Under the pieces are notes generated by a model, which saw only the letters and a list, made by a program, of their open reading frames with translations, ran no database searches and was not told where the DNA came from. Made by a program: the position numbers and the translations under genes. A stretch of 41,690 nucleotides of DNA from Thermoplasmata archaeon (lineage in GTDB: Archaea; Thermoplasmatota; Thermoplasmata; Lutacidiplasmatales; UBA184), in assembly GCA_021828665.1 (NCBI GenBank), contig JAJZDH010000002.1, forward strand, positions 1 through 41,690, read 5' to 3'. This document shows, piece by piece, positions 2,828 through 41,690 of this stretch (its first letter is position 1; every line of letters begins with the position of its first letter).

Positions 2828-2873
2828 ACCCCCTCCGGTAGTGCCATTCCCACGGCGGGCGGAGACCACGAAG

Positions 2874-5800
2874 ATGATTCAGTTATCGAGAGCGGAAGCC
2901 GGGAGCGGACGGAGTGTCGCAGGGCGCCGTCTCGGGCGTCGGGGCCTCACGCCGATATCGTCGATGGTCGTGGTCGTGGTGGTGCTGGCCCTCGTCGGGG
3001 TCAGCGCGTACGGGATTATTGGCGGGTTTTCGCCCGCCCCGACCCCGAGTTGCCAGCCGTCGAACTCCCCGGGCTGCAACTCGTTCCTGAACGTCCACGA
3101 CCTCACGGTCGTGGTGCCCTTCCAGTCCGTGCAGCAGGGCACCCCGGTGCCGTTCACCGTGACCCTGCCTTCCGGGGAGAGCGCCAGTTCCTACTCGTAC
3201 GCGTTCGGGGATGGCACCCCTGTGAACCACTCGTCGAGCCCCACCATGAACCATGCCTTCGCCCATCCCGGCGTCTATCTGGTGGGCGTGCAGGCGCTGG
3301 TCCAGGGCACCTACCACGACAACTACCACAACCTGATCCAGATCAAGGTCAACCCGTCGTTCGCGGCCGATGCGAATCAGAGCCTTCCCGGAATCTCCGG
3401 ATCGGTGGCCGCGAACTCCACGAGTTCTCCGTCATCCCCGCCCACCGCGGTCCTCCAGCCCGGCCAGACCGTGACCCTCAGCGCCCAGTACACCAACTCC
3501 CCCTCCAACCCCTCCTACGTGGAGGTCCCGCCCTCGGTCAATCTCTCGGCGGCGGCCGGGGCCACCGTGGTGGGCAAGACCCTCCTCTCGACGAATGTGA
3601 CCGAGTCGCTCCGCTTCGCGAACCCGGGAACCTACACCGTCACCATGGTCGGCGGCTCGACCCTCACCAATTCCTCGAACCCCACCCACCCTTCCGTCTA
3701 CCAGAACTTCACGTGGACGGTCTTCGTCGCGGAACCCACCTACCATGCCGGAATCCTGGGGGCCGCCAACCCGCGGAGCCCCCACCCGGGGACCATCCTC
3801 GTCTACGAGCTCGCGCCGGGCGGTGCCCGTACCGAGGACCCGGCCATCGCCTACGATACCGTCAGTGCGGAGCCCATCCAGAACATCTACCAGACCCTCA
3901 TCAGCTACAACGGAAGCGATGTGGGCCCCACGTACCAATCCTTCGTTCCGGTGCTCGCCACCTGCGTTCCGGGAAGCCCGCAGTGCCTCCAGCAGTACGG
4001 CAGCTCCCTCATCAACGGGACGAACTACACCTTCGTCATCAGCAGCGCGCCGCAGTTCTACGACCCGCAGACGCAGAACCACTGGGGCGTCTATCCCAGC
4101 GACGTGGTCTTCTCCATCGCCCGGACGCTCGGCTTCTCCACCCTCCCCTGCGTGAGCTGCAACAACGGGTGGATCCTGGGGCAGTCGCTCCTGTTCAGCG
4201 GGAACGCGACGTGGGACACCATCCACGAAAGCTACAACAACACCCCCCAGGGCATCCTCGATTCGATGACGGTGAACGGATCGCTCTGCCCGTCGGAGGC
4301 CATGGCGAGCGAGCACGGGTGCGTCACCTTCAATGCCGACGGGCAGCACCGCGCATGGCCGTACTTCCTGGAGCTCATCGCCGATGAGCTCGGCGGATCG
4401 ATCGTCCCCTGCGGGTGGTTCAGCGCCCAGGCGCAGGATGCGGGGATCCCGTACTGGACCGCCGGCAACTCGACCGGCAACGGGGACCACCCCTGCCAGA
4501 TGCCGGGCGTGACCGCCGGAGGGACCACCTGGGGCCGCCCCGTCTCCCAGATCCCCTACCAGGGTTGGGACCAATGGGAGACCATCGGATCCGGAGATAC
4601 CGGGCGGTACGGCGGCAAGGTCCAGTACAACATGGTCGGTTCGGGACCGTACTTCATGGCCCAGTACGAGGTCGGCCTTTCCTACGAGCTCCAGGCGAAC
4701 CCGGACTACGCCTCGAACCCCGACTGCACCTGGTCCGGCTGCTACCCGGCCGCCGGCAGCTACGCGAAGCTCATCGAGGTGACGTGGGAGACCGACCCGA
4801 CCCAGGGCGAGCAGGCGCTCGCGAGCGGAGTGGCCGACTTTGCCAGTGTCCCCTCCACGGACCTTTCGCTCCTCCTCCAGCTCATCTCCGAGGGAAAGGT
4901 GAACGCCATCAGCGCACCGACGCTGAACCTCGGGTTCATAGCGTTCACGATGAGTTTCAACCTCCAGGGAGCCGAGAGGATCTCCACCCAGCCCGTTACG
5001 GTGCAGTCGGATTTCCTGGGCTATCTCGGGATGCGCCAGTTCCTGGTGCACTCGTATCCGTACGCGACGATCCAGCAGACGATCAACACGAAGGACGGGA
5101 TCCAGCTGGGCTTCAACTACGGAGGGGCGATCCCGCAGTTCATGGGCAACTACTACCCGACGAACATCGCCTGGCCCAGCGGGGACCCCTGCACGGATGC
5201 GAGCAACCCCTCGTGCGCCGCCTACTGGTGGAATTCCATGCACGACCCGACGAGTCCGTACTTCGATCCCCAGGTGCTCAGCTGCTCCTCGGGAAACCCG
5301 TGCGAGTTCCCGCTCATCGGCCAGACCGGCAACCCCGAAGGGGACATCGTGAACGCCCTTTGGGTGAAGTGGATCTCCCAGCTGAGCGGAGGGGCCATCG
5401 TGGCCACCCCCGTGGATCTCAACTTCGCGACCATCGTCACGGACAGCACGAGCTCGTCGCCGGGTCAGAACCCGCTGCCGATGTACGGCCTGGCCTGGGC
5501 ACCCGACTATCCGGATCCCACCGACTACGTGCAGCCGCTCTACCTGGCGAACAGCACCTACACCTACAGCGATGCGGTGGCCCAATCCCTGTTCCAGTCC
5601 CAGTTCGGGACCGGCTGCCCGGCGCCCGCCTCGGACTACAGCTACTACGCGAACCTGACGACCCCCGTCTCCCAGGCGTGCCAGGCGGTGGCCTACAAGG
5701 CGATGCTGAACGTCCTCGGCCAAGCCGCGTACACCCCGGCGGGACCGCTCCGGGCGCAGCTCTACGATGAGGCGGAGAAGATCGCGAACCAGCTCGCGCT

Positions 5801-5939
5801 GTACCTCTACACCTCGCAGGCGAACGCCTTCAGTTCGGCGGCGGCGTGGATCAACATCAACTCGATCAACGAGAACGTGACGACGGGGGCGGGAGGCATC
5901 GCCTCCTACTTCTCGATCACCGGAAACGGCGTGGCCTAG
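2874..5939 (+). CDS. Membrane-anchored extracellular protein: N-terminal TM helix, PKD domain, family-5 (peptide/oligosaccharide/nickel type) ABC substrate-binding domain
   Basis: Track ORF 2841..5939; the ATG at 2874 (MIQLSRAE...) is favoured by the TATA and SD positions. TM segment: ISSMVVVVVVLALVGVSAYGII. PKD motifs: YAFGDGT...HAFAHPGVYLV. SBP_bac_5-like core: DPAIAYDTVSAEPIQNIYQTLISYNG...NYTFVISSAPQFYDP...YPSDVVFSIARTL. My hand count gives about 17 N-x-S/T sequons. Confidence 0.85.
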   Translation: MIQLSRAEAGSGRSVAGRRLGRRGLTPISSMVVVVVVLALVGVSAYGIIGGFSPAPTPSCQPSNSPGCNSFLNVHDLTVVVPFQSVQQGTPVPFTVTLPSGESASSYSYAFGDGTPVNHSSSPTMNHAFAHPGVYLVGVQALVQGTYHDNYHNLIQIKVNPSFAADANQSLPGISGSVAANSTSSPSSPPTAVLQPGQTVTLSAQYTNSPSNPSYVEVPPSVNLSAAAGATVVGKTLLSTNVTESLRFANPGTYTVTMVGGSTLTNSSNPTHPSVYQNFTWTVFVAEPTYHAGILGAANPRSPHPGTILVYELAPGGARTEDPAIAYDTVSAEPIQNIYQTLISYNGSDVGPTYQSFVPVLATCVPGSPQCLQQYGSSLINGTNYTFVISSAPQFYDPQTQNHWGVYPSDVVFSIARTLGFSTLPCVSCNNGWILGQSLLFSGNATWDTIHESYNNTPQGILDSMTVNGSLCPSEAMASEHGCVTFNADGQHRAWPYFLELIADELGGSIVPCGWFSAQAQDAGIPYWTAGNSTGNGDHPCQMPGVTAGGTTWGRPVSQIPYQGWDQWETIGSGDTGRYGGKVQYNMVGSGPYFMAQYEVGLSYELQANPDYASNPDCTWSGCYPAAGSYAKLIEVTWETDPTQGEQALASGVADFASVPSTDLSLLLQLISEGKVNAISAPTLNLGFIAFTMSFNLQGAERISTQPVTVQSDFLGYLGMRQFLVHSYPYATIQQTINTKDGIQLGFNYGGAIPQFMGNYYPTNIAWPSGDPCTDASNPSCAAYWWNSMHDPTSPYFDPQVLSCSSGNPCEFPLIGQTGNPEGDIVNALWVKWISQLSGGAIVATPVDLNFATIVTDSTSSSPGQNPLPMYGLAWAPDYPDPTDYVQPLYLANSTYTYSDAVAQSLFQSQFGTGCPAPASDYSYYANLTTPVSQACQAVAYKAMLNVLGQAAYTPAGPLRAQLYDEAEKIANQLALYLYTSQANAFSSAAAWININSINENVTTGAGGIASYFSITGNGVA

Positions 5940-28076: not shown

Positions 28077-28889
28077 CTACCGCTTCCGTCCCCGGCGACG
28101 GTTGCCGAAAACGGTTAGCGATATAAAGATGGCGAGGACGAAGGCGAACGCCCCGGCCACGTACCAGAGCGTGTTGTTCGGCGGGGCCGAGGCCACGTAG
28201 AACGATTGGGAGTACTGGGTGGCGCCCCCGGCGAAGACCACCAGGCCGTGGGCGTTCGCGAGGCTGAGGGAGAACGTATGCCAGCCTCCCGCGAGGTCCG
28301 GGTTCACGTAGCTGTACCGGATCTGGTAGGACGCCCCTGCCGTGAGCGCCGGCACCTCCACGGAGCCGACGGGGGTGCCGTCGAGGAGGACCAGGACCGC
28401 GAAGGGGCTCGAGCCCATCCCGGAGGCCACGACGAGCGAGGCGGTGATCGTGTAGGGCAGGATGACGGTGATCGTATAGCTCAGGTTCGTCGAGGCGTTC
28501 CGACCGTTCAGGCCGCTCGTCACCTCGATGTTGAGGGTGAGCGTCTGGGTGAGGTTCGAGGTGGCGAGCGAGAGGGAGTGCGCGCCGTTCTCCAGGATCC
28601 CCGCCGTCGGATTCAGGGTGACGCCGGTGGTGTTGGCACCGATCACCGACGCCGAGAAGCTCACCGTCCCGAGGAGCGTCCCGTTGAAGCCGTAGGCCGG
28701 ACCGCCGCTCGCGGAGAGGGTGTAGTTGTAGGTGAGGTCGGTCCCCACGCTCGTCGGGCCGTTGACGGAGGCGCTGAGCGCGGGGTAGGCCGTGGCCCGG
28801 GCGTTCCCGGCGGCGAGGAGGGTGGCGCCCGCCCCCGAGGCGACCAGGAGGAGGAGCAGGACGAGGACGGGGACCGGCGAACCCCTCAC
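28077..28889 (-). CDS. Sequon-rich membrane-anchored surface protein (hypothetical), translationally coupled to aglB
   Basis: 270 aa from the GTG (complement of 28887-28889), which overlaps the aglB TGA (GTGA), inside track ORF 28077..29255. N-terminal hydrophobic signal/anchor: VRGSPVPVLVLLLLLVASGAGA. There are 7 N-x-S/T sequons. The C-terminus has a TM helix plus a basic tail (LWYVAGAFAFVLAIFISLTVFGNRRRGRKR). Confidence 0.6.
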   Translation of the reverse strand: MRGSPVPVLVLLLLLVASGAGATLLAAGNARATAYPALSASVNGPTSVGTDLTYNYTLSASGGPAYGFNGTLLGTVSFSASVIGANTTGVTLNPTAGILENGAHSLSLATSNLTQTLTLNIEVTSGLNGRNASTNLSYTITVILPYTITASLVVASGMGSSPFAVLVLLDGTPVGSVEVPALTAGASYQIRYSYVNPDLAGGWHTFSLSLANAHGLVVFAGGATQYSQSFYVASAPPNNTLWYVAGAFAFVLAIFISLTVFGNRRRGRKR

Positions 28890-31800
28890 CGGCGCCACCT
28901 CCGGGTCCGGTACCACCGCAGCGTCACGAAGAAGAGGAGCGCCGCCGCGGCCGGCACGAAGACCAGCGGATAGAGGAGCCAGGTGGGGTAGGCCGGCGGC
29001 GTCCCCAGGCCGGGCCCGGTGACCGTGAGCGTGCTGTTCGAGATCGAGACCGGCAGGAGGGAGACGGAGAGCGCGAGCGTGGAGGTGACGGCCGCGGAGC
29101 GGTTGACGACGGCGGCCTCCACGTGCACGACGCCGGGGTTCGACGGGTTCGACGGCCCCGTGGCGAGGAGGATGCGGTAGGAGGTGTTCGTGGCCGGCTG
29201 GAGCGTCACCGGTCCGATCACGGGCGTGGTGCCGCTCAGGATCCGGGCCGTCCATCCGAGCCCCTCAATGGCGACCAGGTTCGAGATGGAGAGGGAAACG
29301 GACTCGGGCGCATTGCCGGTGTCGAGGACCCAGAACGGAAGGGTCGTGGAGTTCGATCCGACGGTGCCGAGCGAGGGGCTCGCGCCCATCTCGATCCCGT
29401 AGTACGGCTCCACGGAGAGCGTCGGCGCCGGGGTGGCCACCCCCACGATGATCCCACCGGCGAGGACCGCCTCCAGGGTGATCGGCGGGACCGTCGTGGG
29501 CGTCGCCGCCGGCAGGTGGATGCGGAGGGAGCCCGTCGCCGACCGGTTCCCGGCGGCCAGGCCGAGCGATACATTCTCCGGGGTGAAGTTGAAGGTCCAC
29601 GTCGACGGCGCCCCCACCATGTGGAGCGCGAGCGGCGTGTTCCCCACGTTCGTGAGGCTGTACGCGAGGCTCACCGTCCCGCCCGGCAGGACGGTGAAGG
29701 CGTGCGGCCCCTGGATCTGGAAGTCGACCGTACGGGAGAGGAGCGGTGTCAGGGCGATCCCGGTGGCGGCGTTCCCGTTCTCGAGCTCCACCACCGCCGT
29801 TCCGGTCGTCGCGGTCCGCACCCCGTAGGGGTTCGCCGACGCGTTCGCCTGGAAGGTCCAGCTCCCCGGTGGGAGCGCGAGGGGGATCGGGACCCCGACG
29901 GGCACCCCCGTTTCCACGAGGTGCATCCCGGAGGGACCGGAGAGGGTGAGGTTCGCGGTGGCCGACGACCGCGCGGCGGCGCTGCTCAGCGTGAGGAAGT
30001 CGGTCCAGGTGGTCCCCACCGTGAGGGGGAGGGTCTCGGTCGGGTACGTGGAGAGCACCGCCCGGCCCATCGACGCGAGGGTCACCCCTCCTTCCGTCGC
30101 CGTGGCATACACCTCGTAGGCCCCGGGGAGGAGGAACGCCGCGAAGGATCCCGACACGACGGGGACCTCCTGGGCGGCCACCGAGGGCGACGGGCCGACG
30201 AACATCACGGTCCCCGAGAGCGGCCCGGGGTAGCTCGGATAGACGACGGTGCCGGTCACCTCGAGGAGATCCTTCGTCGCCAGGAGGACCACCGTGCAGT
30301 TCGACTGCGCCGACGCGACGGTGCAGGTCGCCCCCGACGCCGTCCGGTACGTCCCCTCCTCCGAGAATCCCCCGGGGCCGGGGCTGAAGAGGGTGGTGTT
30401 GAGGAAGGGGTGGACGACGGTGCCGAGGGGGAGCGCGAGGGAAAAGACCCCGCCGAGAAGGGGGACCGACAGCGCGAGCCCGGAGCCGGTCTCCAGGGCG
30501 AGTTCCCGGGTCCCGTTCAGCGGACTCCCGTCCGGGAGGCTCACGGTCCCGCGGAGGAGCCCGCCCGGTTGGAGGAGGCTCACGAGGGCCGGCCGCATCG
30601 CGCCCGTGGCATTGACGACGATGCGGGTGAGGTTCGAGAAGCTCGCATTGCCGAGCGCCGCCTGCGCGAGCAGGGTATCGGTGCCCGGGGGCGTGAGGAA
30701 CGGGAGGACGAACGCCGACCCCGTGAGGTTCTGCTCGAATCCGTCCCCCGAGAGGGACACCTCGACCGCGGCGTCGGAGACCCCCTTCGGGAGCGCGAGC
30801 TTCCCGGTCGCGGGGATCTCGAAGCGCACCGGCACGGTGAGGTTCGCCGCGCCGGAGCCGATGGGGATGTCGAGGAGGACCGGGGCGATGGTGCGGTAGA
30901 GTCCGACCGCGTGGGGGATCGGGGCCCAGGCGGCCACGGAGTAGTTGCCCGGGGTCAGCGACAGGGCGTAGCCGGTCCCTCCCGTCGCCTCCGAGCTCGC
31001 CGCGGGGGACCCGACGGCGGTCAGGTTGAGGTGCGTCGCGGTCCCGGCCGGCAGGCCGGTCACCACGATCCGGGTCGGCACCGGGGTGAGGTTCAGCGGG
31101 AGGATCCCGAGCGACGCCGCCGTCTGGGGGCTGAGGCCGCACTGGTCGAAGGGGGCGAAGCCGGGCGCCGTGACGTTCAGGCAGAGGCTCTCCCCGACGG
31201 GAAGCGTTCCCGGGATGAGGAGGGTGAAGTTGCCGGTGCGGTTGGTGGTGGCCGTCAGGTACGCCCCGGTCGGATCGACCGTCAGCCGCACGACCGACTC
31301 CGGGGCCGGGTAGATGCTGCCGCGCCCCAGGACGGCGCCCACCGTGGCGTGGAAGGTGGTGGCCGGGCCCAACCCGAGGGAGACGGAGGTGTCCGAGGCG
31401 ACCGAAAGGCTCGCCAGGCCCACGTACGCCGGGGCCCCCGAGGTGGGAGGGACGCTCGCGGAGAGGCCGTAGGTGCCGGCCGGTAGCAGCAGGAGCCAGT
31501 TCCCCGATTCGTTGTCGAAGGCGCTCACCGAGTATCCGTTCGACGCGAAGGCGGAGATGGAGATCTCGGTCGGGCTGACCGTGCTCGTGGGCGGCGGGGT
31601 GTGCCCGCTCACGAGGTAGGCCGGCACCAGGTTCGCGGCCGGGGCGACCGCGAGCGTCCCGGCGGCGGAGATCGTGACCCGGTCGATGGCGGCATACGGG
31701 CGGCCGTTGAGGAGGCCGGCGGCGTAGACCTGGTAGCTCCCGAGCGGCAGCGTCGCCACGATCGTGCCGTTCGCGGGGGAGACGAACAGCGTCGAGTTCG

Positions 31801-34800
31801 CGCCCGTCGTGTTCGTGACCGGGGCGCTCGAATTCGTGGACGACCGCGCGAGGGCGGAGGAGGCCGGGGTGAACCGCACCGGGAACCCGGCGACCGGGGC
31901 GCCGTTCCGGGCCACCGGGAGGAGGATCGAACCGACCGCGGTGAGCGTGAGATTCAAGTGGGCGGAGGCCCCCTTGGTGGCGAGGGAGACCACCGTCGGG
32001 ACCGACGCGAGGGAGGCGGAGGGCAGGCGGGCCTGGACCGTGTAGCTCCCCGGACCAAGGTCGCTGACCCGGAAGGCGCCGGAGGCGTTGACGGCGGTCG
32101 ACACCGACCCGGTCGGGTAGCTCACCCGGACCGTCGCCCCGGCCGTCGACGCGCCGGTGGGGAGGTTCACGGTCCCGAAGATCTCCCCCGGAGAGAGACC
32201 GACGCTCTGGTTGGAGTCGAGGCCGGGGGTGAGGTAGAGGTTGGGCTGGGTGTAGTTGGTGGCGCCGTCGGTCACGGAGAAGTTGTAGACCCCGGGCGCG
32301 ATGTCGGGGATCCGGAACGCCCCGCTCGCATCGCTCGCGAGGTGGTAGCTCGCGAGCCCGGGGCCCCAGAGATTGACCTCGGCCCCCGGCACCACGGTGT
32401 CCACGCTCGGCGAATAGCTCGAATTGTTGGCGGTGTTCCAGTACACCTCGCCTTGCACGGTGGCCGGGCGGAGGAGGATGTTCTGCACCTCGGTGGGAGC
32501 GTTGTCGGAGAGGGCGTAGGCGGAGGAGACCCGGAGGTGCAGGGTGGCGAGCACCGTGGTGCCCTGCTGGGTGAGGCCGTCGATGGAGCCGGTGGTCACG
32601 TTCACGGTGTCGTTCCCCGGCGGGAGGACGACGCGGTAGGAGCCGTCGGCGGCGGTGGGGACCACCATGTGCGGGATCCCCCAGCCGTCGTCCACCGTGA
32701 CGAACGCCCCGGGGACCGGCGCGCCGTTCGGCATCTCGACGGTGCCCGTCAGGGTCTGGCCGGGATAGTACTCGAGGATCGCCTCGCCGCCGTTGAAGTA
32801 GGACCCGGCCGAGGTGTCGGCCGTGCCGTTCGTGGCCTTGGCCCTGGAGACGGCGGTGGGGAGGTTCGCGGCGACGAAGCAGCCCGGGTGGGCGTTGGGG
32901 TTCGCGTAGGGACAGTAGTACGCGGTCCGGTAGACGACCTGGAAATGCTGGAGCATCCAGCCCGGCTCCGGGGAGCTCCCCTGCAGCGAGCCCGAGAGGC
33001 CCGGGATCCCGCTCCCCTGGCCGGTATCGGAGCCGTTGTAGCCGAAGTAGGTGCGGTAGATCATCGAGTTGTAGAACGGGGCGAAATAGTTGATGTTGTA
33101 GCTCACCGCCTGGACATTGGCGGGAACGTGCCCTTCGGGGTAGGTGTTCCCGTCGGAGCCCACCACGGAGACGTTGAAGAACGCCGAGGGGTTGCCGCCG
33201 CTGTCGATCGCCCGGTCGGTGAGATCCGCCGGCGCGTAGAAGATGCCGGTGTTGCTGCCCGAGAACGGGATCAGGCGGGAATCGACCATCGCGTAGCGGA
33301 TCGACCAGCCGGTGTAGGCCTGGATATCGTTGTACAGCTTCGCGATCTGGTTGAGCGAGAGGGTGTCGGCGAGGAACCAGGAGGCGGCCATGTACATCGC
33401 GTTCGTCGGATCGAGGTGGGCCGCGTTGACGGGAAGGTAGCGGCCGGGGTTCGCGATGACGAGCGGGACGTCCGCCGAGGTGTTGGCGAGGAGGTTGTGG
33501 AGCTCCGGGAGCGCCACCCCGTCGGCGGCGAGGAGCGCGTTCAAGGAGGCCGGCAGGTAGGGCTGGTGGGTCACGACCTGCTCGCCGGCGAGGAGCTCGA
33601 CCGCGAGCACGCCGATCGCCTCGCTCTCGTTCTGGCTCAGGAGGAACGCCCCGGAGGGGTCGATGCCATCCTGGAAGTTGTCCGCCACGACCGGGTGGCC
33701 GCCCTCGCCCAGGGTCTGGAACCCGTAATCCCACCAGCTCACGAGCGCCGGACGCTGGTAGAGCGGAAGATTGGTATCCTGCTGGGCGAGCCAATTGTAC
33801 CCGGCCTCGTCGTACTGGTTGGGGGTGTCCAGCGACGTCCCGGCGGCACCCAGGTAGAAGCTCGAGGCGTTGCCCGGCGAGGTCCGGAGCGGCGGGGGGA
33901 TCGTCTCGAAGATCTGGTCGTTGTACTGGCTCTTCAGGTTCCCGTAGGGGATCCCGGCGTCGATGGCGTACCAGACGTTCGGCACGATGATGACCAGGAC
34001 CAGCGCCATCACCAGCACGTGGCGCGGCTTGAAGGAGCGTCGGATGCTGGTGAGCTGGCCCCGGCGGTCGGAGAGGGAGGCCGCCGTGCGGCGGAGCTGC
34101 GCGTACCCCGCGATCTCGAGGATGAGGAGGATGACCTCGGCCGGCAGGAGGGCGAAGGTGGCGGTGCTGAGCAGGAAGAACTTCGCGGCGGTAATGGGCA
34201 GGTAGATCGTGATCACGGCGAAGACGAAGAACAGGACGTGCTCGCGCCGGAACTTCTCCCGTCCGATCCGGAACGCGAAGAGCACCAGCCCGACGAACGC
34301 CATGAAGAAGGTGACGACGCCGAACCCGAGGATGAGGGAGTCGATGGAGGGCGCCTGGGCCTCCGCCACCGTCGAGTAGACGAGGGTCTTCACGAAGTAC
34401 CCCTGGCCGGTGATGATGGTGACGAACGCCGAGGGGTCGACCGCGAGGAGGAGACCGACCGCCGCGAGACCGGTGAGGAGGAAGGCGGGGACGGAGACGA
34501 CCCACGGCTGGTCCCGGAGGAGGAGGAACGGCAGGAGCGCGACGAGCGTCCCGAAGAAGACGATGAGCGGGGTGTCGAACCAGCCCGCGAACAACCCCTG
34601 GACGATGTAGTACGGCATCGCCATCGGGAAGCCGATCAGCCCGACGATCCAGGTGGCCGAGTACAGGGCGAAGGAGTCCACCCGCCGGATCCGCTCCGCC
34701 AGCATCTGGACGATGAGGAAGATCACGAGGGCGGCGATGAAGAACGGGTACCCCTGCCAGCTCAGGGCGAGCGCCCCGAGGCAGACTCCCGTGAAGACCG

Positions 34801-35485
34801 CCCACTTGAGCCCGGTCCGCTCGTACCGGAAACAGGCGACGAGGGCGGCGGGGATCTCCCGGGGCCTCCGGTAGCTCGCAACCCATCGGCGGTGTCCGAT
34901 GGATTTCACCATGCGGATGTACGCATATACGGTGAGGAGCATGACGAATGTGTAGAAGGTCAGGTAATTGGCATAGCCAAGGGCCGACGATTCGATGCTG
35001 GACACCATGAACGGGTAGATCATGGCCGCGACGAGCCCCATCCGCCGCGAGCTGACCTCGCGGCCGATCAGGTAGACCGGGAAGACCCCCAGCGCCGCCC
35101 ACAGCGGCGACTGGATGTCGAGGAAGTAAGCGCCGGCGACCACGGCGGCGGACTGGCCGCCCGCCGGGGCGAAGAACCCCTGGAAGAGGATGCCGAGGAC
35201 GGCGTTCATCCAGTCGAAGAGCGGTTCCCGGGGGTTGATCTCCCCGACGGGGTAGTGGAGGCCGTAGTCCCGGATCAGGTTCGTGTGGTTCTGGATGATG
35301 TAGACCATCACCCGCGAGTGGTAGAACGAGTCCGATCCGCCGCCGTAGACGTAGAGCCACCCCCACTGCTGGAAGATCGAGTACGCCCAGAGCGAACGGA
35401 CCAGGATCGCGAGCGAGAATGCGGTCAGCAGGATGACGACGGTGAGCCCGTGCTGCCGCCACCAGCCCTTCGGCTCCTCTCCCAT
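28886..35485 (-). CDS. aglB: Archaeal oligosaccharyltransferase AglB (STT3 family) fused to a roughly 1,290-aa C-terminal beta-sandwich repeat extension with a terminal TM anchor
   Basis: 2,199 aa. The N-terminus is multi-TM with GGGSDSFYHSR and NPREPLFDW. WWDYG is encoded at 33722-33736 (aa 584-588). From about aa 905 come CarboxypepD_reg-like repeats (GTVEMPNGAPVPGAFVTVDD...DGSYRVVLPPG; ASGAFRIPDIAPGVYNFSV; ASGAFRVSDLGPGSYTV). S/T/A/G/V-rich repeats follow, ending ...PTWLLYPLVFVPAAAALLFFVTLRWYRTRRWRR. Confidence 0.9.
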   Translation of the reverse strand: MGEEPKGWWRQHGLTVVILLTAFSLAILVRSLWAYSIFQQWGWLYVYGGGSDSFYHSRVMVYIIQNHTNLIRDYGLHYPVGEINPREPLFDWMNAVLGILFQGFFAPAGGQSAAVVAGAYFLDIQSPLWAALGVFPVYLIGREVSSRRMGLVAAMIYPFMVSSIESSALGYANYLTFYTFVMLLTVYAYIRMVKSIGHRRWVASYRRPREIPAALVACFRYERTGLKWAVFTGVCLGALALSWQGYPFFIAALVIFLIVQMLAERIRRVDSFALYSATWIVGLIGFPMAMPYYIVQGLFAGWFDTPLIVFFGTLVALLPFLLLRDQPWVVSVPAFLLTGLAAVGLLLAVDPSAFVTIITGQGYFVKTLVYSTVAEAQAPSIDSLILGFGVVTFFMAFVGLVLFAFRIGREKFRREHVLFFVFAVITIYLPITAAKFFLLSTATFALLPAEVILLILEIAGYAQLRRTAASLSDRRGQLTSIRRSFKPRHVLVMALVLVIIVPNVWYAIDAGIPYGNLKSQYNDQIFETIPPPLRTSPGNASSFYLGAAGTSLDTPNQYDEAGYNWLAQQDTNLPLYQRPALVSWWDYGFQTLGEGGHPVVADNFQDGIDPSGAFLLSQNESEAIGVLAVELLAGEQVVTHQPYLPASLNALLAADGVALPELHNLLANTSADVPLVIANPGRYLPVNAAHLDPTNAMYMAASWFLADTLSLNQIAKLYNDIQAYTGWSIRYAMVDSRLIPFSGSNTGIFYAPADLTDRAIDSGGNPSAFFNVSVVGSDGNTYPEGHVPANVQAVSYNINYFAPFYNSMIYRTYFGYNGSDTGQGSGIPGLSGSLQGSSPEPGWMLQHFQVVYRTAYYCPYANPNAHPGCFVAANLPTAVSRAKATNGTADTSAGSYFNGGEAILEYYPGQTLTGTVEMPNGAPVPGAFVTVDDGWGIPHMVVPTAADGSYRVVLPPGNDTVNVTTGSIDGLTQQGTTVLATLHLRVSSAYALSDNAPTEVQNILLRPATVQGEVYWNTANNSSYSPSVDTVVPGAEVNLWGPGLASYHLASDASGAFRIPDIAPGVYNFSVTDGATNYTQPNLYLTPGLDSNQSVGLSPGEIFGTVNLPTGASTAGATVRVSYPTGSVSTAVNASGAFRVSDLGPGSYTVQARLPSASLASVPTVVSLATKGASAHLNLTLTAVGSILLPVARNGAPVAGFPVRFTPASSALARSSTNSSAPVTNTTGANSTLFVSPANGTIVATLPLGSYQVYAAGLLNGRPYAAIDRVTISAAGTLAVAPAANLVPAYLVSGHTPPPTSTVSPTEISISAFASNGYSVSAFDNESGNWLLLLPAGTYGLSASVPPTSGAPAYVGLASLSVASDTSVSLGLGPATTFHATVGAVLGRGSIYPAPESVVRLTVDPTGAYLTATTNRTGNFTLLIPGTLPVGESLCLNVTAPGFAPFDQCGLSPQTAASLGILPLNLTPVPTRIVVTGLPAGTATHLNLTAVGSPAASSEATGGTGYALSLTPGNYSVAAWAPIPHAVGLYRTIAPVLLDIPIGSGAANLTVPVRFEIPATGKLALPKGVSDAAVEVSLSGDGFEQNLTGSAFVLPFLTPPGTDTLLAQAALGNASFSNLTRIVVNATGAMRPALVSLLQPGGLLRGTVSLPDGSPLNGTRELALETGSGLALSVPLLGGVFSLALPLGTVVHPFLNTTLFSPGPGGFSEEGTYRTASGATCTVASAQSNCTVVLLATKDLLEVTGTVVYPSYPGPLSGTVMFVGPSPSVAAQEVPVVSGSFAAFLLPGAYEVYATATEGGVTLASMGRAVLSTYPTETLPLTVGTTWTDFLTLSSAAARSSATANLTLSGPSGMHLVETGVPVGVPIPLALPPGSWTFQANASANPYGVRTATTGTAVVELENGNAATGIALTPLLSRTVDFQIQGPHAFTVLPGGTVSLAYSLTNVGNTPLALHMVGAPSTWTFNFTPENVSLGLAAGNRSATGSLRIHLPAATPTTVPPITLEAVLAGGIIVGVATPAPTLSVEPYYGIEMGASPSLGTVGSNSTTLPFWVLDTGNAPESVSLSISNLVAIEGLGWTARILSGTTPVIGPVTLQPATNTSYRILLATGPSNPSNPGVVHVEAAVVNRSAAVTSTLALSVSLLPVSISNSTLTVTGPGLGTPPAYPTWLLYPLVFVPAAAALLFFVTLRWYRTRRWRR

Positions 35486-35626: not shown

Positions 35627-36160
35627 TTACCCGGGCGCCCCGGGGGAGGCCGGGCGGGCGCGGAACCGGTAGAAGATGCGGCCGTCCGGGAGGTCGAAGC
35701 CCTCCACGTTCACCTCCGCGCCGATGGCGAGCTCCGTCCACGGCCGCCCTTCGATCCGGCCGAAGAGGCGGAGCGGCACCCCGTCGAGATCCACGAGCCC
35801 CACGGCGAACGGGACCGCCTCCTCCATGCCGAGGGGGGCTCCGGCGAGGACGGCGCTGAACGCGTAGATCCGTCCGTGCCGCGGCAGGTCGACCCACTCG
35901 AGCTCCGACCGGTGGCACTCCGGGCAGACGGTCCGCGGCGGCCACAGGAGCCGGCCGTCCCGCCGGCAACGGGTCGTGGAGAACCGTCCGGCCCGGAGGT
36001 GGTCGAAGAAGGCCGCGATCTCGGTGAACCGGGGGTCCTCGAGCGGGTGGAAGTCGAGGAGGGTGGGGATCGGCGCCGGGGAGGAGGGGGTGGCCGGGGC
36101 CGCCCGCGGACGGGCGGTGACCGCCGGCGCCTCGGCGGCGGGGGTGGTCGGGGGCGCCAT
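35627..36160 (-). CDS. DUF35 Zn-ribbon/OB-fold protein (thiolase-associated)
   Basis: 177 aa. Zn-ribbon motif: RCRRDGRLLWPPRTVCPECH. The OB-fold part reads GRIYAFSAV...PFAVGLVDLDG-VPLRLFGRIEG. The ATG lies 1 nt after the thiolase stop. The N-terminus is a P/A-rich 30 aa. Confidence 0.85.
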   Translation of the reverse strand: MAPPTTPAAEAPAVTARPRAAPATPSSPAPIPTLLDFHPLEDPRFTEIAAFFDHLRAGRFSTTRCRRDGRLLWPPRTVCPECHRSELEWVDLPRHGRIYAFSAVLAGAPLGMEEAVPFAVGLVDLDGVPLRLFGRIEGRPWTELAIGAEVNVEGFDLPDGRIFYRFRARPASPGAPG

Positions 36161-36161
36161 C

Positions 36162-37343
36162 TCAGCCGCCCCGCTGGTAGACCATGAGGGAATGGACGTT
36201 CGCGCTCCCGCTCAGGTTGTGGACCAGCGCCCATTCCGGGTCCGGCACCTGGCGCTCGGGCGGCACCTCCGCGGCGAACTGCCGGTAGACCTCGACCGCC
36301 TGGGCGATCCCGGTGGCCCCGAGCGGGTGGCCGCATCCGAGGAGCCCGCCCCTCGGGTTGACGACGATCTCGCCGCCGAGGGAGCTCTTCCCGTCCAGGG
36401 CGTAGGCGCCGCCTTGGCCGGCGGGGCAGAATCCGAGCGCCTCGCCGGCCACGATCTCGGAGATGGAAAAGCAGTCGTGGAGCTCGGCGAAGTCGAGGTC
36501 GGCCGGCCCGATCCCCGCGCTCCGGAACGCCTCCCGGCCCGCCTGCCGGAGCCCGACCCAATCGGTGAGGTCGCCCGCGTTCGCGAGGTTGTGCCAGTCC
36601 GAATACTGCCCCGTGCCCCGGATCCAGGCGGGGTTGGAGGTGTACTTCCGGGCGAGGTCGCCCCGGACCACGAGGACCGCCGCCGCGCCGTCGGTCATCG
36701 AGGAGCAGTCGCCGAGGCGGAGCGGCGGGGCGACGAGCGGCAGGCCGCGGAGCTTCTCCCGGGAGAAGCTCTTCGCGTGGAACTGCGCGTCGGGGTTCGA
36801 GTTCGCGAACCGGTGGTTCTTCTCGGAGACGGCGGCGAGCGCCTCCTCGGTCGTCCCGAACTCCCGCATGTGCCGCTGCGCGACCATGGCAAAGAACGGC
36901 GGGGCGGTCGCCCCGTGGGCCCCGTCCCACGGCCGGTCCATGACGCACGCCATCGACGTGTTCGCCTCGGCCATGCTGGGGAGGTTCATCTTCTCCACGC
37001 CGAGGGCGACCGCCACGTCGGAGAGCCCGGCGGCGATGGCGGCGTAGGCGCTCCGGATCGCCGATTGCCCGGAGGCGCAGGCGAGCTCCGTCCGCTGCAG
37101 GATGCGGCGGGGCTTCAGGCCGAGAAGCTCCGCGGCGAGCGGGGCGACGTGGGACTGGAAGGCGAACCGCTCCGGCTCGGCGGCGCCGACGAAGAGCGAG
37201 TCGACCTCCTCCGCCCGGAGCTCGGGGATCGCCTCGAAGAGGCGGCGGCCGGCCTCCTGGACGAGCTCGCTCCAGGTGGCGGCGCGCACGCCGAACCGGG
37301 TGGTGGCGCCGCCCGCGACGGCCACCTCCGGCCGCTCGCTCAT
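36162..37343 (-). CDS. Thiolase (archaeal acetoacetyl-CoA thiolase / SCP-x-like)
   Basis: 393 aa from the internal ATG (complement of 37341-37343) of track ORF 36162..38777. Active-site-like segments: ELACASGQSAIRSA, ELHDCFS, LGCGHPLGATG. The start overlaps the leuB stop (ATGA). Confidence 0.9.
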   Translation of the reverse strand: MSERPEVAVAGGATTRFGVRAATWSELVQEAGRRLFEAIPELRAEEVDSLFVGAAEPERFAFQSHVAPLAAELLGLKPRRILQRTELACASGQSAIRSAYAAIAAGLSDVAVALGVEKMNLPSMAEANTSMACVMDRPWDGAHGATAPPFFAMVAQRHMREFGTTEEALAAVSEKNHRFANSNPDAQFHAKSFSREKLRGLPLVAPPLRLGDCSSMTDGAAAVLVVRGDLARKYTSNPAWIRGTGQYSDWHNLANAGDLTDWVGLRQAGREAFRSAGIGPADLDFAELHDCFSISEIVAGEALGFCPAGQGGAYALDGKSSLGGEIVVNPRGGLLGCGHPLGATGIAQAVEVYRQFAAEVPPERQVPDPEWALVHNLSGSANVHSLMVYQRGG

Positions 37344-38476
37344 CCGACCGTCCCCCGGATCGCGGCGACCACCCGGTCGCCGACGTCGCTCGTGGAGAGC
37401 GCCCCGCCCTGGTCGTAGGTCCGGGCCGTACCGGCCTGGAGCTCGCGGGCGATCGCCTGCTCCAGCCGGTCGGCCTGCTGGAGGAGCCGGGAGTCGGTGT
37501 GCGTCTCCCCGAGGTGGCGCAGCATCATCTCCGTGGCGAAGAAGGTGGCGAACGGATTGACCCGGTTCTGCCCGGCGTGCTTCGGCGCGCTCCCGTGCAC
37601 CGGCTCGAACATGGCATGCGCCTCCCCGATGTTGCCGCCGGCGGCGAAGCCCATGCCGCCCTGCAGCACGCTCGCAAGGTCGGTGACGATGTCCCCCATC
37701 ATGTTGGTGGAGACGACCACGTTGTAGTGCTCGGGGTTCCGGACGATCCACTGGGCGAAGGCGTCGACGTAGGCGTAGTCGCGCTCGATCTCGGGGTACT
37801 CCGCCCGTCCGATCCGGTCGAACGTCTCCCGGAAGAACCGGCACCCCTCGAGGACGTTCGACTTGTCGACGCAGGTCACCCGGCGCACCCCGTCCTCGGG
37901 AGCTCCCCGGGACCGCCGGCGGGCCTCGGCGAACGCCCGGCGGATCACCCGCTCCGAGCCCTTCCGGGTGATGACCCGGGTGTCGATGGCGACCTCGGTC
38001 TCCCCGCCCCGGCGCAGGAGGCCGCGGGCGGGCGTGTAGAGCCCCTCGGTGTTCTCCCGGAGGATGACGAGGTCGACCTTGGCCGGCGACCAGACCTGCT
38101 TGTACTCGCCGCTGATCCGGTGGAGGACCCCCGGGTACAGGCGGCACGGCCGCACGTTCGCGTAGAGGTCGAGGTCGCGCCGGAGCCCGAGGACGAGCGC
38201 GGCGCCGGCGATGTCCCCGTTCGGAAGGTTCACGCCCGGCCACCCGACGGCCCCGAGCAGGATCGCATCGGCCTCCCGGGCGGCCTCCTCGGCCTCGGGC
38301 TCCCACTCCTTCCCGTGGTCGCGGTAGTAAACGGCCCCGCCGGGGTGCTCTTCGAGGGTCCACGGATGCGGTCCGCCCTCCGCGAGGGCGTCGAGGACCT
38401 TCCGGCCCTCCCGGACCACCTCCGGACCGGTGCCGTCGCCGGGGAGGAGGACCAGCCGGTAGCTCGAATCCTTCAT
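37340..38476 (-). CDS. leuB: 3-isopropylmalate dehydrogenase family protein (beta-decarboxylating dehydrogenase)
   Basis: 378 aa from the internal ATG (complement of 38474-38476). Motifs: LLPGDGTGPEV, LYANVRP, LVILRENTEGLY, DKSNVL, STNMMGDIVTDLAS, GSAP. The exact substrate (isopropylmalate, homoisocitrate or tartrate-type) is not resolvable by eye. Confidence 0.85.
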   Translation of the reverse strand: MKDSSYRLVLLPGDGTGPEVVREGRKVLDALAEGGPHPWTLEEHPGGAVYYRDHGKEWEPEAEEAAREADAILLGAVGWPGVNLPNGDIAGAALVLGLRRDLDLYANVRPCRLYPGVLHRISGEYKQVWSPAKVDLVILRENTEGLYTPARGLLRRGGETEVAIDTRVITRKGSERVIRRAFAEARRRSRGAPEDGVRRVTCVDKSNVLEGCRFFRETFDRIGRAEYPEIERDYAYVDAFAQWIVRNPEHYNVVVSTNMMGDIVTDLASVLQGGMGFAAGGNIGEAHAMFEPVHGSAPKHAGQNRVNPFATFFATEMMLRHLGETHTDSRLLQQADRLEQAIARELQAGTARTYDQGGALSTSDVGDRVVAAIRGTVG

Positions 38477-38988
38477 CCGGGCCTCCGCCCCCGGGCGAGC
38501 TCGGTGCGGGTCTTCTCGACGAGGCCGCCCACCTCGAGGAGCTCGAGGAGGTGGGTCGGGAGCGGGGGGAAGGCGAGGTGCGCGCCGGTCCGGAGGTTGG
38601 TGACGGTGCCGCGGGCCATCTCGATCCGGGCGGTGTCGCCGGCCTCGAACAGGGCGCGCGCGCCCCGGACCTCGATCGCCGGGATCCCGAGGTTGATGCA
38701 GTTGCGGTAGAAGATGCGGGCGAAGGAATCGGCGACCACGGCGCCGATCCCGAGGGCGCGGAGCGCCTGGGGCGCATGCTCGCGGCTCGAGCCGCACCCC
38801 AGGTTCTCGTCGGCGACCACGATGTCGCCGGCCCGGGCCGCCCGGGCGAACTCGGGGAGGGCGATCTCGAAGACGTGCTTCTTGAGCTCGTTCGGATCGA
38901 TGATGGTGAGGTACTTCCCGCTGATGATCTGGTCGGTGTCCACGTCCTTGCCGAGCGTCCAGACCCGGCCCTCGATGCGATCGCGCAT
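38473..38988 (-). CDS. leuD: 3-isopropylmalate dehydratase small subunit (aconitase-family swivel domain)
   Basis: 171 aa from the internal ATG (complement of 38986-38988). Motifs: GKDVDTDQIISGKYL, ENLGCGSSREHAPQAL, SFARIFYRNCINLG. The stop overlaps the leuB start (ATGA). Confidence 0.9.
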   Translation of the reverse strand: MRDRIEGRVWTLGKDVDTDQIISGKYLTIIDPNELKKHVFEIALPEFARAARAGDIVVADENLGCGSSREHAPQALRALGIGAVVADSFARIFYRNCINLGIPAIEVRGARALFEAGDTARIEMARGTVTNLRTGAHLAFPPLPTHLLELLEVGGLVEKTRTELARGRRPG

Positions 38989-39014: not shown

Positions 39015-40298
39015 CTACAGGTATTCCCGGGGATCCGTGATCTCGCCCCGGATCGCCGTCGCGGCGGTGGCCGCCGGGCTCATGAGGTAGATCCGGGCCT
39101 CCTTCGCCCCCATCCGTCCGGGGAAGTTCCGGTTCGAGGACGACGCGCAGGTCTCGTCGGGGGCGAGGATCCCCATGTTGCCGCCGAAGCAAGCCGAGCA
39201 GCTCGAGTTCGTGAACACGGCGCCGGCCTCCGTGAAGACCTCGATGAGCCCCTCCTTGAGCGCCTGCTGGTAGATCTTGGTGGAGGCCGGGGAGACGATG
39301 TAGCGCACCCCGGCGTGGACCTTCTGGCCCTTCAGGATCCGGGCGCCCTCCCGGAGGTCCTCGATCCGGGCGTTCGTGCAGGAGCCGAGGAAGACCTGGT
39401 CGACCCGGACATGCTCGCCGACGACCTCCGGCAGCGGCCGGACGTTGTCGGGGGAGTACGGGCAGGCCACCATCGGCGGCATGCCGTCCACGTCCACCTC
39501 CACCGTCCGCTCGTACCGGGCATCGGCGTCGGCGGCGGCGGGATGCATCGCATGCTTCGCGATCGGGCGGAGGTACTCCGTCGTGACGGAATCGGCCCCG
39601 ATCATGCCGCACTTCGCCCCCATCTCCGTGGTCATGTTGCAGACGGTGAACCGGTCGGTCATCGGGAGCGCCGCGATGGTCGGCCCCGAGAACTCGACGG
39701 CCTTGTACGTCGCTCCCGTCGTGCGGATCTCCCCGAGGACCTTGAGGACGAGGTCCTTGGCGGTCACGCCGGGGCCGAGCCGGCCCGTCACGTGCACCCG
39801 GATCGTCGGCGGGACCTTGAGCCAGATCTTCCCGAGGGCGAGCACCGCGGCCATCTCGGTGGGCCCGATCCCCGCGGCCACCGCCCCCATGGCGCCCAGC
39901 ATGTTCGTGTGGGAGTCGGTCCCGACGGCGAGGTCGCCGGGGACCACCCAGCCGTCCTCGGCCAGGATCTGGTGGCAGATCCCGTGCCGTCCGACATCGT
40001 AGAAGTGCGGGAGGTGCTGCTCCCGCGCGAACTTCCGCAGGATCTGGTGGAGCACCGCCGCGCCTTCGGTGGAGGCGGGGACCCAGTGATCGATGGCGAT
40101 GACGACCCGGTCGGGGTCCCAGACCCGCTCGGCCCCCATCTCGTGGAACGGACCGACGGTCTGGGCGCCCTGCTCGTGCATCATGGCGAGGTCCACCCGT
40201 CCGTCCACGATCTGCCCCGGCACGACCGCCTCGAGCCCCGCGGCGCGGGCCAGGATCTTCTCGGCGAGCGTGAGGCCCCCTCCCGTTCCCCCGTTCAT
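39015..40298 (-). CDS. leuC: 3-isopropylmalate dehydratase large subunit (archaeal-type, about 420 aa)
   Basis: 427 aa. Motifs: LAEKILARA, DLAMMHE, GICHQ, VGTDSHT, GSCTNARIEDL, SCSACFGG, SSSNRNFPGRMG. Confidence 0.92.
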   Translation of the reverse strand: MNGGTGGGLTLAEKILARAAGLEAVVPGQIVDGRVDLAMMHEQGAQTVGPFHEMGAERVWDPDRVVIAIDHWVPASTEGAAVLHQILRKFAREQHLPHFYDVGRHGICHQILAEDGWVVPGDLAVGTDSHTNMLGAMGAVAAGIGPTEMAAVLALGKIWLKVPPTIRVHVTGRLGPGVTAKDLVLKVLGEIRTTGATYKAVEFSGPTIAALPMTDRFTVCNMTTEMGAKCGMIGADSVTTEYLRPIAKHAMHPAAADADARYERTVEVDVDGMPPMVACPYSPDNVRPLPEVVGEHVRVDQVFLGSCTNARIEDLREGARILKGQKVHAGVRYIVSPASTKIYQQALKEGLIEVFTEAGAVFTNSSCSACFGGNMGILAPDETCASSSNRNFPGRMGAKEARIYLMSPAATAATAIRGEITDPREYL

Positions 40299-41542
40299 GG
40301 TTTCCCCGTCCTCCCGGAGACGGTCGCGACCATCTCCCAGAACTCGGCATCGGAGATGCCCGGCTGCTCATAGAGCGACCGGTACTCCGCGAGGAAGCGA
40401 CGGAGCTCCGCCTTGCTGCGCCGCTCCCCGGCCCGCTTGATGCTCCCCAGGAGCTCCGCGAGCTGGGGATCGGAAAGGACGATCGCCCGTTCCTTGAGCT
40501 TCTCCACCACGGCGGCCTTGCCGCTGTGCTTGCCGAGGATCATCCGCCGGACCCGCCCCAGCGTCTCGGGCTGGACCGGCTCGTAGGTGAGGGTGTGGGC
40601 CAGGATGCCGTGGGTATGGATCCCCGCCTCGTGGGAGAACGAGTTGAAGCCGACCAGCGGCTTGGTGGGCGCGAGGGGCACGCCGCTCAGCTCCTCGACC
40701 TTCCGGGAGAGGGCGTAGAGCCGGTCGGTGGCGAGGCCGGTCCGGACCCCGTAGAGCGCCTCGAGCGCCACCGCCACCTCCTCGAGGGAGGCGTTGCCGG
40801 CCCGCTCCCCGAGGCCGTTCACGGTGACGTGGGGGGCGGTGACGCCCATCTCGAGCGCGGTCAGCGTGTTGGCGGTCGCCATGCCGAAATCGTTGTGGCA
40901 GTGCACCGACCAGTCCCGCGGCCGCACCCGGCGTTCGAACTCCCCGAGGAACCACCGGAACGTGAGCGGGGTCATGATGCCCACCGTGTCGGAGACGACG
41001 AGCCGGTCGGCGCCGGCGTCCCGGACGGCGCCGTAGAGCGGCTCGAGGAAGTCGAACGGGGCCCGGGCCGTGTCCTCGGTCACGAACGCCACGTGGAGAC
41101 CGGCCTGCTTCGCCCGGCGCACCGACTCCACGGAGGCCCGGAGGACCTCCTCCCGGGTCATCTTGAGCTTGAAGCGGAGGTGCACCTCGCTCGCCGCCAC
41201 GAAGATGGCGATGTGGGTAGCGCCGCTCCGCAGGACCGCCTCGATGTCGCCGGGCACCGTCCGGGCGCTGGCCAGGATCTTCGCCCGGAGCCCCGCGTGG
41301 GCGAGGCGGTGGACCGCCGCCGCCTCCTCCTCGGAGACCACCGGGATCCCGGCGTCGATGACCGAGACGCCGGCGGCCGAAAGGTCCTCGGCGATGGAGA
41401 GCTTCTCCTCGGGGGAGAAGTGCACCCCCGGGGTCTGCTCGCCGTCCCGGAGCGTCTCGTCCCAGAAGACGATCGGCTGGGCGAACCGCCGCTGGGCGGC
41501 GGTGGCCTCGTGGTAGGACTCGACCAGGCGGGCGGACGCCAT
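40295..41542 (-). CDS. 2-isopropylmalate synthase / homocitrate synthase / citramalate synthase family enzyme (short form without a LeuA-type regulatory domain)
   Basis: 415 aa. DRE-TIM motifs: [55 protein letters not shown]. The stop overlaps the leuC start (ATGA). Confidence 0.88.
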
Positions 41543-41566
41543 GGGCCCCGGGACGGGGGAGCGGCG

Positions 41567-41579
41567 ACATAACCTTTGG
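41567..41579 (-). promoter_or_regulatory. BRE/TATA-like element (minus strand CCAAAGG-TTATGT) of the six-gene leu/thiolase operon
   Basis: TTATGT (complement of 41567-41572) lies 24 nt upstream of the ATG at 41542 and is directly preceded by CCAAAGG, the same word as at pheS. Confidence 0.5.
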
Positions 41580-41690
41580 TGGCTCCGGCCGGGGGGCGAC
41601 GCGCTAACGTACGGAGATGCCCCCGGCCCCGACGGTCCCGGGCGGGAGCCCGCCGGCCGGGATCGCCGCCGCTCCGCTCCGGCCGGCCGT

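Follow-up and report, generated by a model that had tools for sequence, protein, structure and literature searches.

Giant AglB of a Thermoplasmata archaeon: an oligosaccharyltransferase core continued into a sequon-rich beta-sandwich extension and followed by an overlapping gene for a small CARDB-like protein

N-glycosylation in archaea is generally described as being carried out by one AglB polypeptide, 600-1,000 residues long. We studied a stretch of 41,690 nucleotides (nt) from a Thermoplasmata archaeon (assembly GCA_021828665.1, contig JAJZDH010000002.1), referred to here as the window, in which the aglB gene at 28886..35485 (-) runs from an ATG start through 2,199 codons to a TGA stop. 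The locus raises the question of whether so large an oligosaccharyltransferase (OST) is a genuine single protein and, if it is, what the part beyond the catalytic core contributes. We found that the giant form is the standard AglB of the class Thermoplasmata and of Aciduliprofundum and is not a new architecture; the window gene is a further orthologue, from an uncultured soil lineage of the Lutacidiplasmatales type, and holds nothing beyond what public genomes already contain. What is new here, and the most useful new lead, is the coupling of aglB to a small downstream gene.

The guanine-plus-cytosine content (GC) of the whole window is 72%, and long open stretches are therefore found in all six frames. 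For this reason long shadow open reading frames (ORFs) of 2,065, 1,296 and 787 residues overlap the giant aglB gene. Among the overlapping frames, that of AglB is the sole one with coding-type composition (GC1/GC2/GC3 of 0.62/0.53/0.95), and homologues were found for it and not for the others. The frame continues unbroken from the core into the large sequon-rich module, as had been predicted, and the chain ends in LLYPLVFVPAAAALLFFVTLRWYRTRRWRR. ARAGORN placed a tRNA-Gly(acc) inside the ORF at 32298-32375 (-); no Rfam tRNA was found there at the gathering threshold, and the call is probably a false positive.

The N-terminal 900 residues are a complete AglB/STT3 by fold and by conserved catalytic motifs, in agreement with the original prediction. 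A GT-C membrane domain of about 13 transmembrane helices (aa 1-511, 33953..35485; this and all further AglB features are on the minus strand) was delimited by AlphaFold2, Foldseek and Pfam STT3, the last of which matched aa 49-500 with 26.1 bits against a cut-off of 24.5. After it comes an extracellular catalytic/globular domain (aa 512-900, 32786..33952), which aligns around WWDYG with 3vu0 and 3vgp, both C-terminal domains of AglB. Identity as AglB is also supported by the NCBIfam model TIGR04154, which matches aa 17-814, although below its cut-off. The AlphaFold2 model of aa 1-1100, built from 61 sequences (pLDDT 79, pTM 0.68), has a helical membrane part to aa 511 and a mixed globular part that ends at about aa 896, after which two sandwich domains follow. 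Searched against the PDB with Foldseek, the core model matched the Archaeoglobus fulgidus enzyme AfAglB-L best (7e9s_A, E 3e-21), followed by human and yeast STT3 and then by PglB and other GT-C enzymes.

The catalytic motifs lie where they would be expected in this fold. The acidic motif of external loop 1 (EL1), GGGSDSFYH, is at aa 48-56 (nt 35318-35344), the TVAE motif of EL5 is at aa 372-375 (nt 34361-34372), and WWDYG, at aa 584-588 (nt 33722-33736), aligns with WWDYG of 3vu0 and 3vgp; the region around it gives a weak AglB_core-like Pfam match. D52, E375 and WWDYG are invariant columns among the 61 sequences, as is a long NPREPLFDW block in the first external loop, and an Asp or Glu occurs at aa 165 directly after the invariant I164. 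D52, the acidic residue at aa 165 and E375 probably correspond to D47, D161 and E360 of AfAglB. The enzyme is presumed to be active. It is also the single AglB nearby, the pattern WWD[YWFN]G being present once in the window and once in each of 80 related loci.

A. fulgidus AglB-L (PDB 3WAJ, 3WAK, 5GMY, 7E9S) has the same GT-C fold of 13 transmembrane helices and the same extracellular globular domain (TM-score 0.65 on the target, whole chain), and it shares with the window AglB the EL1 Asp, the EL5 T-x-x-E and WWDYG, at an identity of about 13%. Its solved chains of 793-867 residues, however, end after the globular domain, and it has neither a sandwich array nor a second membrane anchor.

The fusion of this core to a long extension is widespread. 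The best 120 homologues, found on independent NCBI, JGI, ENA and Logan contigs of "Thermoplasmata archaeon", are all 2,117-2,231 residues long and align at 46-58% identity over about 100% of their length. We fetched 80 loci, which come from soil and peat metagenome-assembled genomes (MAGs) and include Candidatus Lutacidiplasma silvani. About 65 of them have a single uninterrupted ORF of roughly 2,150-2,420 codons ending in a tail like RWWRTRRWTRR; counted along the stop-to-stop ORF, WWDYG usually falls at about codons 580-620. Of the others, 11 are cut by contig ends and four have frame breaks. The tail RWWRTRRWxRR is present in nearly all of the fetched loci. In a HMMER scan of 1.84 billion representative proteins the core alone retrieved 277 clusters at E<=1e-30. 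A genome scan with one representative per species showed the extension in at least 135 genomes. Because the fusion is conserved in at least 135 species-level genomes, a mis-assembly or a lost stop codon, the doubt attached to the original prediction, is excluded.

Relatives at 30-36% core identity are again 2,060-2,775 residues long. Collinear orthologues of 2,050-2,115 residues are found in Thermoplasma, Ferroplasma, Cuniculiplasma, Oxyplasma and Aciduliprofundum and include TVG1271204 of Thermoplasma volcanium GSS1 (2,076 aa, called "dolichyl-phosphooligosaccharide-protein glycotransferase" in UniRef), WP_309214711 of Ferroplasma sp. (2,056 aa), a protein of Oxyplasma meridianum (2,113 aa) and one of Aciduliprofundum sp. 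MAR08-339 (2,081 aa, annotated as "required for N-linked glycosylation"). Thermoplasma sp. Kam2015, Caldiplasma sukawensis and Cuniculiplasma have further members, one "Thermoplasmatales archaeon" entry is named AglB, and the source names for such proteins include "Stt3" and "AglB". The T. volcanium GSS1 genome is said to have been published in 2000. All of the named giant members are sequon-rich and end in a transmembrane helix and a basic tail. The novelty that the original prediction implied is therefore not upheld, the fusion being a common, annotated AglB subtype across the Thermoplasmata and Aciduliprofundum.

The T. volcanium, Ferroplasma, Oxyplasma and Aciduliprofundum proteins have the same plan as the window protein, with a core of about 900 residues, an extension of 1,170-1,210 residues bearing 30-73 sequons, a transmembrane helix and a basic tail. 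They differ from it in having extensions about 100 residues shorter and a tail that is RGRKK-like rather than the RWWRTRRW of the window's relatives, and their core identity to it is about 29-36%; no characterisation of any of them was found. The window AglB shares the features common to the giant form: a collinear extension of about 1,170-1,330 residues, a C-terminal transmembrane helix with a basic tail, and an overlapping gene for a CARDB-like protein of about 260-270 residues. Its extension and that of Aciduliprofundum align collinearly from one end to the other at both termini, which indicates that the fusion predates the split of these orders. In Acidiplasma, a protein of 1,425 residues (P0306) has kept an extension of about 540 residues together with the C-terminal anchor. 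Some relatives of 1,096-1,290 residues stop after two to four sandwich domains and have no transmembrane helix; many "short" matches are partial sequences.

AglB length also differs between clades at the upper end. Four proteins (P0166, P0194, P0218 and P0237) are 2,667-2,775 residues long, and some lineages have extensions of 1,600-1,750 residues or insertions before WWDYG, which is then at aa 700-820.

The papers covered, which represent part of the literature (PMC3750248, PMC5155288, PMC10354927, PMC9287336 and PMC7226565), do not mention the size or architecture of Thermoplasmata AglB.

The extension is an array of about 13 beta-sandwich domains, a count judged from the groups of strands in the AlphaFold2 model. 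The first three, D1-D3 (aa 901-1207, 31865..32785), are CarboxypepD_reg/transthyretin-like by Pfam and AlphaFold2 and span aa 901-990, aa 1008-1107 and aa 1118-1207. Ten more follow to about aa 2140, and then a hairpin; this D4-D13 region (aa 1208-2155, 29021..31864), defined from the AlphaFold2 model, contains most of the sequons, and its last two domains bear CARDB-like "NxGN" strands. The model of aa 1001-2199 (pLDDT 86, pTM 0.52) is all-beta except for one long helix at aa 2168-2193, and its confidence is low in two places only, an S/T/N-rich loop (aa 1212-1228) and the segment immediately preceding the helix. At least three CarboxypepD_reg-like units had been predicted; Pfam detects four stretches from aa 911 on, three of them in D1-D3 (E 1.6e-26) and one at about aa 1393-1448, and finds no match past about aa 1563. 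The distal 900 or so residues, described in the same prediction as Ig-like repeats, do consist of beta-sandwich domains and form part of the array, but they are not sequence repeats: a self-BLAST of the extension was empty at E<10, so recent internal repeats are absent.

No enzyme or lectin domain was found in the extension by Pfam, NCBIfam, a PDB sequence search or Foldseek, all of which returned sandwich families only. The Foldseek matches are generic multi-sandwich proteins with TM-scores of at most 0.11, among them alpha-2-macroglobulin/complement MG domains, hydin, Gram-positive pilins, SpyCEP and Bacillus anthracis TIE. Across the 120 homologues the extension is 1,293-1,332 residues long, with indels nearly absent. 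Compared with the window protein, these homologues have an identity of about 0.63 over the core, 0.59 over D1 (aa 901-1000) and 0.30-0.42 over the distal part. The invariant residues of the extension are Gly, Pro, Tyr and Trp, the Cys pairs 1435/1449 and 1721/1730, and sequon Asn, together with the CarboxypepD-type Asp residues D1029 and D1052 in D2. No conserved polar cluster or set of active-site-like residues occurs among the invariant positions. The conserved residues of the extension thus appear to be structural, with the addition of conserved sequons.

Sequons, counted by regular expression as N-x-S/T with x not Pro and compared with composition-preserving shuffles, are concentrated in the extension. 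AglB has 43 in total, 36-37 of them past aa 900, close to the 38 or so counted by hand at first; the extension has 35-37 where the shuffles give 11 +/- 3 (37 vs 11.1), and the membrane domain has 1 where 0.7 is expected. Homologous extensions have 27-49, and 28 sequon columns are common to at least half of the sequences, two of them invariant. Cytoplasmic proteins of the window have 0-3 sequons. Two other predicted secreted proteins in the window are sequon-rich as well, so that sequon richness as such is not special to AglB; the excess is smaller in these, at 7 vs 3.5 for the downstream protein of 270 residues and 17 vs 10.1 for a PKD protein of 1,036 residues. The sequon richness would mark the extension as a surface glycoprotein and is no proof of glycosylation in cis.

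A Kyte-Doolittle scan and the AlphaFold2 models show no hydrophobic helix between the thirteenth transmembrane helix (aa 487-511) and aa 2168; the moderately hydrophobic stretches of the extension that the scan flagged are confident beta strands in the model. The domain bearing WWDxG faces the outside in the solved AglB, PglB and STT3 structures. Because the globular domain is outside and no transmembrane helix intervenes, the array of about 1,250 residues must be extracellular as well, and the ectodomain would form a membrane-tethered arch, in keeping with the predicted location outside the cell and attachment at both ends. Both the conserved Cys pairs and the high density of sequons are consistent with this placement. 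The predicted C-terminal anchor (28889..28984) is borne out by AlphaFold2, hydrophobicity and conservation; it comprises the helix at aa 2168-2193 and an Arg/Trp tail at aa 2190-2199, RWYRTRRWRR. This last helix presumably returns the Arg-rich tail to the cytoplasm, which fits the positive-inside rule.

A C-terminal sorting signal was considered as another explanation for the tail and was rejected, since no model matched it and its motif is not common to neighbouring genes. NCBIfam returned no archaeosortase-type or other C-terminal sorting signal (PGF-CTERM and the like) for the last 63 residues at E<=1. The motif RW.[RK][TS]R[RK]W occurs at most once per locus of about 20 kb, in 70 of the 81 sequences scanned, and is confined to AglB.

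Immediately downstream of aglB is a gene for a protein of 270 residues (28077..28889, (-)), whose GTG start overlaps the TGA stop of aglB as GTGA. The product reads as a type-I membrane protein, with a signal-like hydrophobic N-terminus, a CARDB-like beta-sandwich ectodomain (a weak match), a C-terminal transmembrane helix and a basic tail. A homologue lies 3' of aglB in 75 of the 80 loci. It is also present with 259 residues in T. volcanium (L081, 12228-13007) and with 257 in Aciduliprofundum (L082, 11243-12016), where each gene has a CARDB match and a 4-nt overlap with the aglB stop and where every other neighbour differs. Aligned along its whole length with the T. volcanium counterpart, the window protein is 26% identical to it (BLASTP E 2e-20). 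Across the family a GxNxTG sequon is invariant, and the alignment also shows LDG and GxH motifs. All database members of the family are called "hypothetical protein". No similarity to the C-terminus of AglB was found, so an origin of the small protein by duplication of that part was rejected, and there was no Pfam match to eukaryotic OST accessory families.

The ribosome-binding site of the small gene, GGAGGTG at nt 28896-28902 (-), is inside the codons for the AglB tail. The 3' consensus of aglB over 78 loci is CGG-AGG-TGG-ACC-CGG-CGA-TGA (CGGAGGTGGACCCGGCGATGA); GGAGG is found in 46 of these loci and GGTGG in 16, at 8-9 nt before the ATG or GTG that overlaps the stop. In this consensus the tail Arg codon at position -5 is AGG, and the other tail Arg codons are CGN. 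The last ten aglB codons (28889-28918, (-)), which read ...CGGAGGTGG...CG[A/G]TGA, hold both GGAGG and the next start codon. With the GGAGG embedded and the start codon overlapping, translational coupling constrains the RRW tail at the nucleotide level, which explains at least part of its striking conservation. That the two genes stay adjacent and coupled in different orders is the strongest indication of a joint function of the small protein and AglB, and this CARDB-like membrane protein is a likely partner subunit.

The explanation we favour, and consider fairly probable, is that the giant AglB is a working OST with a built-in, glycosylated, non-catalytic extracellular scaffold. The core would carry out ordinary transfer of a dolichol-linked glycan to N-x-S/T, and the extension would be a rigid, heavily N-glycosylated, non-catalytic ectodomain tethered at both ends. 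The scaffold might be part of a surface glycoprotein coat or a spacer, and it might also serve as a docking platform for the co-translated partner.

Several observations weigh against this explanation. The DK motif, which is canonical in A. fulgidus AglB-L, appears to be non-canonical in the segment after WWDYG of the window protein: the Lys of DDAAK in 3vu0 faces Asn in the family consensus and Ala here (GIDPSGAFLL; HMMER alignment), so that activity and donor specificity are assumed. This segment may be a variant of the DK or MI motif that forms the pocket for the +2 Ser/Thr. The NCBIfam model TIGR04154 (archaeo_STT3, archaeosortase A system-associated) aligned to aa 17-814 at 191 bits against a curated 450, which makes the window protein a relative and not a member of that subfamily. 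The scaffold role is deduced wholly from the lack of enzyme-like features and from the conservation pattern. Finally, given the coupling signal in its codons, the conservation of the tail is no proof of a function at the protein level.

The extension could instead be an accessory module that, with its C-terminal helix and the partner, plays a part similar to that of the non-catalytic subunits in the eukaryotic OST, or of NOMO at the translocon, holding nascent or unfolded substrates, placing the enzyme by SecYEG, or binding glycan or the lipid-linked donor. We regard this as a tentative possibility. The best PDB match of the family profile is human NOMO2 of the BOS complex (E 1e-18, three stretches), at profile positions 1016-1249, which is the D1-D3 part of the extension. 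NOMO, found in the translocon of the endoplasmic reticulum (PDB 9C7V, 9C7U), has the same plan, a tandem transthyretin-like array on the non-cytosolic side with one C-terminal transmembrane helix and a short tail, and the obligately co-translated membrane partner of AglB also fits a subunit role. NOMO is, however, a separate protein that is not fused to STT3, and the likeness is generic at the level of the domain family, at about 20 bits per domain. Homologues match the Pfam families NOMO_5th and EMC7 beta-sandwich weakly, with 26.6-32.7 bits for NOMO_5th against a cut-off of 27 and no significant single stretch, and the window protein has no NOMO Pfam match. There is no evidence for orthology of the AglB extension and NOMO.

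Ribophorin I/Ost1 and OST48/Wbp1 of eukaryotes likewise place lumenal beta-rich domains and a single C-terminal transmembrane helix beside STT3, which would make them analogues in idea only. The extension has no Pfam match to ribophorin I/II or OST48, and no OST accessory subunit is among the 50 Foldseek matches listed per model. The extension also lacks conserved polar residues of the binding-site kind.

A bolder proposal combines these elements, and we put it forward as speculative. The OST of the Thermoplasmata would differ from the textbook single-subunit archaeal enzyme in being a composite of a catalytic AglB, a NOMO-like arch of about 13 glycosylated domains that is covalently joined to it and separately anchored, and an obligate small CARDB-type subunit produced through translational coupling. 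The arch might also be a principal constituent of the glycoprotein coat present in place of a cell wall, for example as the long-known surface glycoprotein of about 150 kDa in Thermoplasma.

It seems unlikely to us that the giant protein is a precursor, cleaved after translation to give an ordinary AglB and a separate surface glycoprotein with a C-terminal anchor, possibly a major coat protein. Thermoplasmata-type archaea are often wall-less. Yang and Haug are said to have described, in 1979, a major membrane glycoprotein of about 152 kDa in Thermoplasma acidophilum, which would be near the size of the glycosylated extension. Also in favour of cleavage, the low-confidence S/T/N-rich loop (aa 1212-1228) could serve as a hinge exposed to the outside, evolution of the distal part is about twice as rapid as that of the core, and the relatives of 1,096-1,290 residues stop after two to four sandwich domains and have no transmembrane helix. 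The core/extension junction, however, has no conserved cleavage motif or disordered linker, and D1-D2 are highly conserved and were modelled together with the core (pTM 0.68). A single frame has been kept since before the divergence of Aciduliprofundum and the Thermoplasmatales, which suggests that the two parts need to be covalently joined, or at least to be present in equal stoichiometry.

A variable adhesin- or antigen-like surface appendage, attached to AglB by chance, is very improbable. Pilins, SdrD and other adhesin-type sandwich arrays are among the Foldseek matches, but the length of the extension is constant within 40 residues over the 120 homologues, recent repeats are missing and collinearity extends across orders. 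Fast-evolving adhesins show the opposite of these features. An assembly artefact or lost stop joining a normal AglB to a downstream surface-protein gene, for which the long chance ORFs of high-GC DNA and the frame breaks in four loci (L033, L051, L072 and L073) could be cited, has practically no probability left: the same ORF of about 2,200 residues recurs on independent contigs by the hundred, the complete T. volcanium and Aciduliprofundum genomes also have it, D1 at the junction is conserved to the same degree as the core, and the four broken loci are all "MFD" MAG contigs that still encode the tail in another frame, a pattern that looks like assembly indel error rather than gene fission.

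The whole class, including the cultivable Thermoplasma, Ferroplasma and Cuniculiplasma, keeps an AglB of 2,000-2,800 residues with a second anchor and a coupled small protein. If the extra parts aid glycosylation or surface building, these organisms would offer a tractable prokaryotic OST with non-catalytic components and a handle on how the glycocalyx is built in wall-less acidophiles. If they are merely a passive spacer, the enzyme is an ordinary AglB with a decorative tail.

The neighbours of aglB in the window are housekeeping genes, and no other agl genes are present there. Upstream, at 35627-37340 (-), are genes for a thiolase and for a DUF35-type protein, in which a ChsH2-like OB fold is combined with a zinc ribbon. 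This pair is familiar from the thiolase/HMG-CoA synthase complex that serves the mevalonate pathway in archaea; a gene for HMG-CoA synthase does not adjoin it here. In 54-58 of the 80 related loci the flanking sequence that was fetched contains homologues of the thiolase and DUF35 genes. An ORF of 871 residues at 36162..38777 (-) was considered as a second AglB or as a single gene and was rejected, since by codon-position GC it is a shadow ORF over three genes in three frames. These encode the thiolase, an isopropylmalate/isocitrate dehydrogenase (LeuB) and an aconitase-family small subunit (LeuD). Next to them, at 39015-41689, are genes for the large subunit of an aconitase-family enzyme and for a protein like LeuA/homocitrate synthase.

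At the other end of the window, the PKD protein of 1,036 residues (2829-5939, (+)) also contains SBP_bac_5 and, with its 17 sequons, may be another surface glycoprotein. The region that encodes it has a GC of 0.66, compared with 0.72 for the window, and a strong negative GC skew, and was possibly acquired by transfer.

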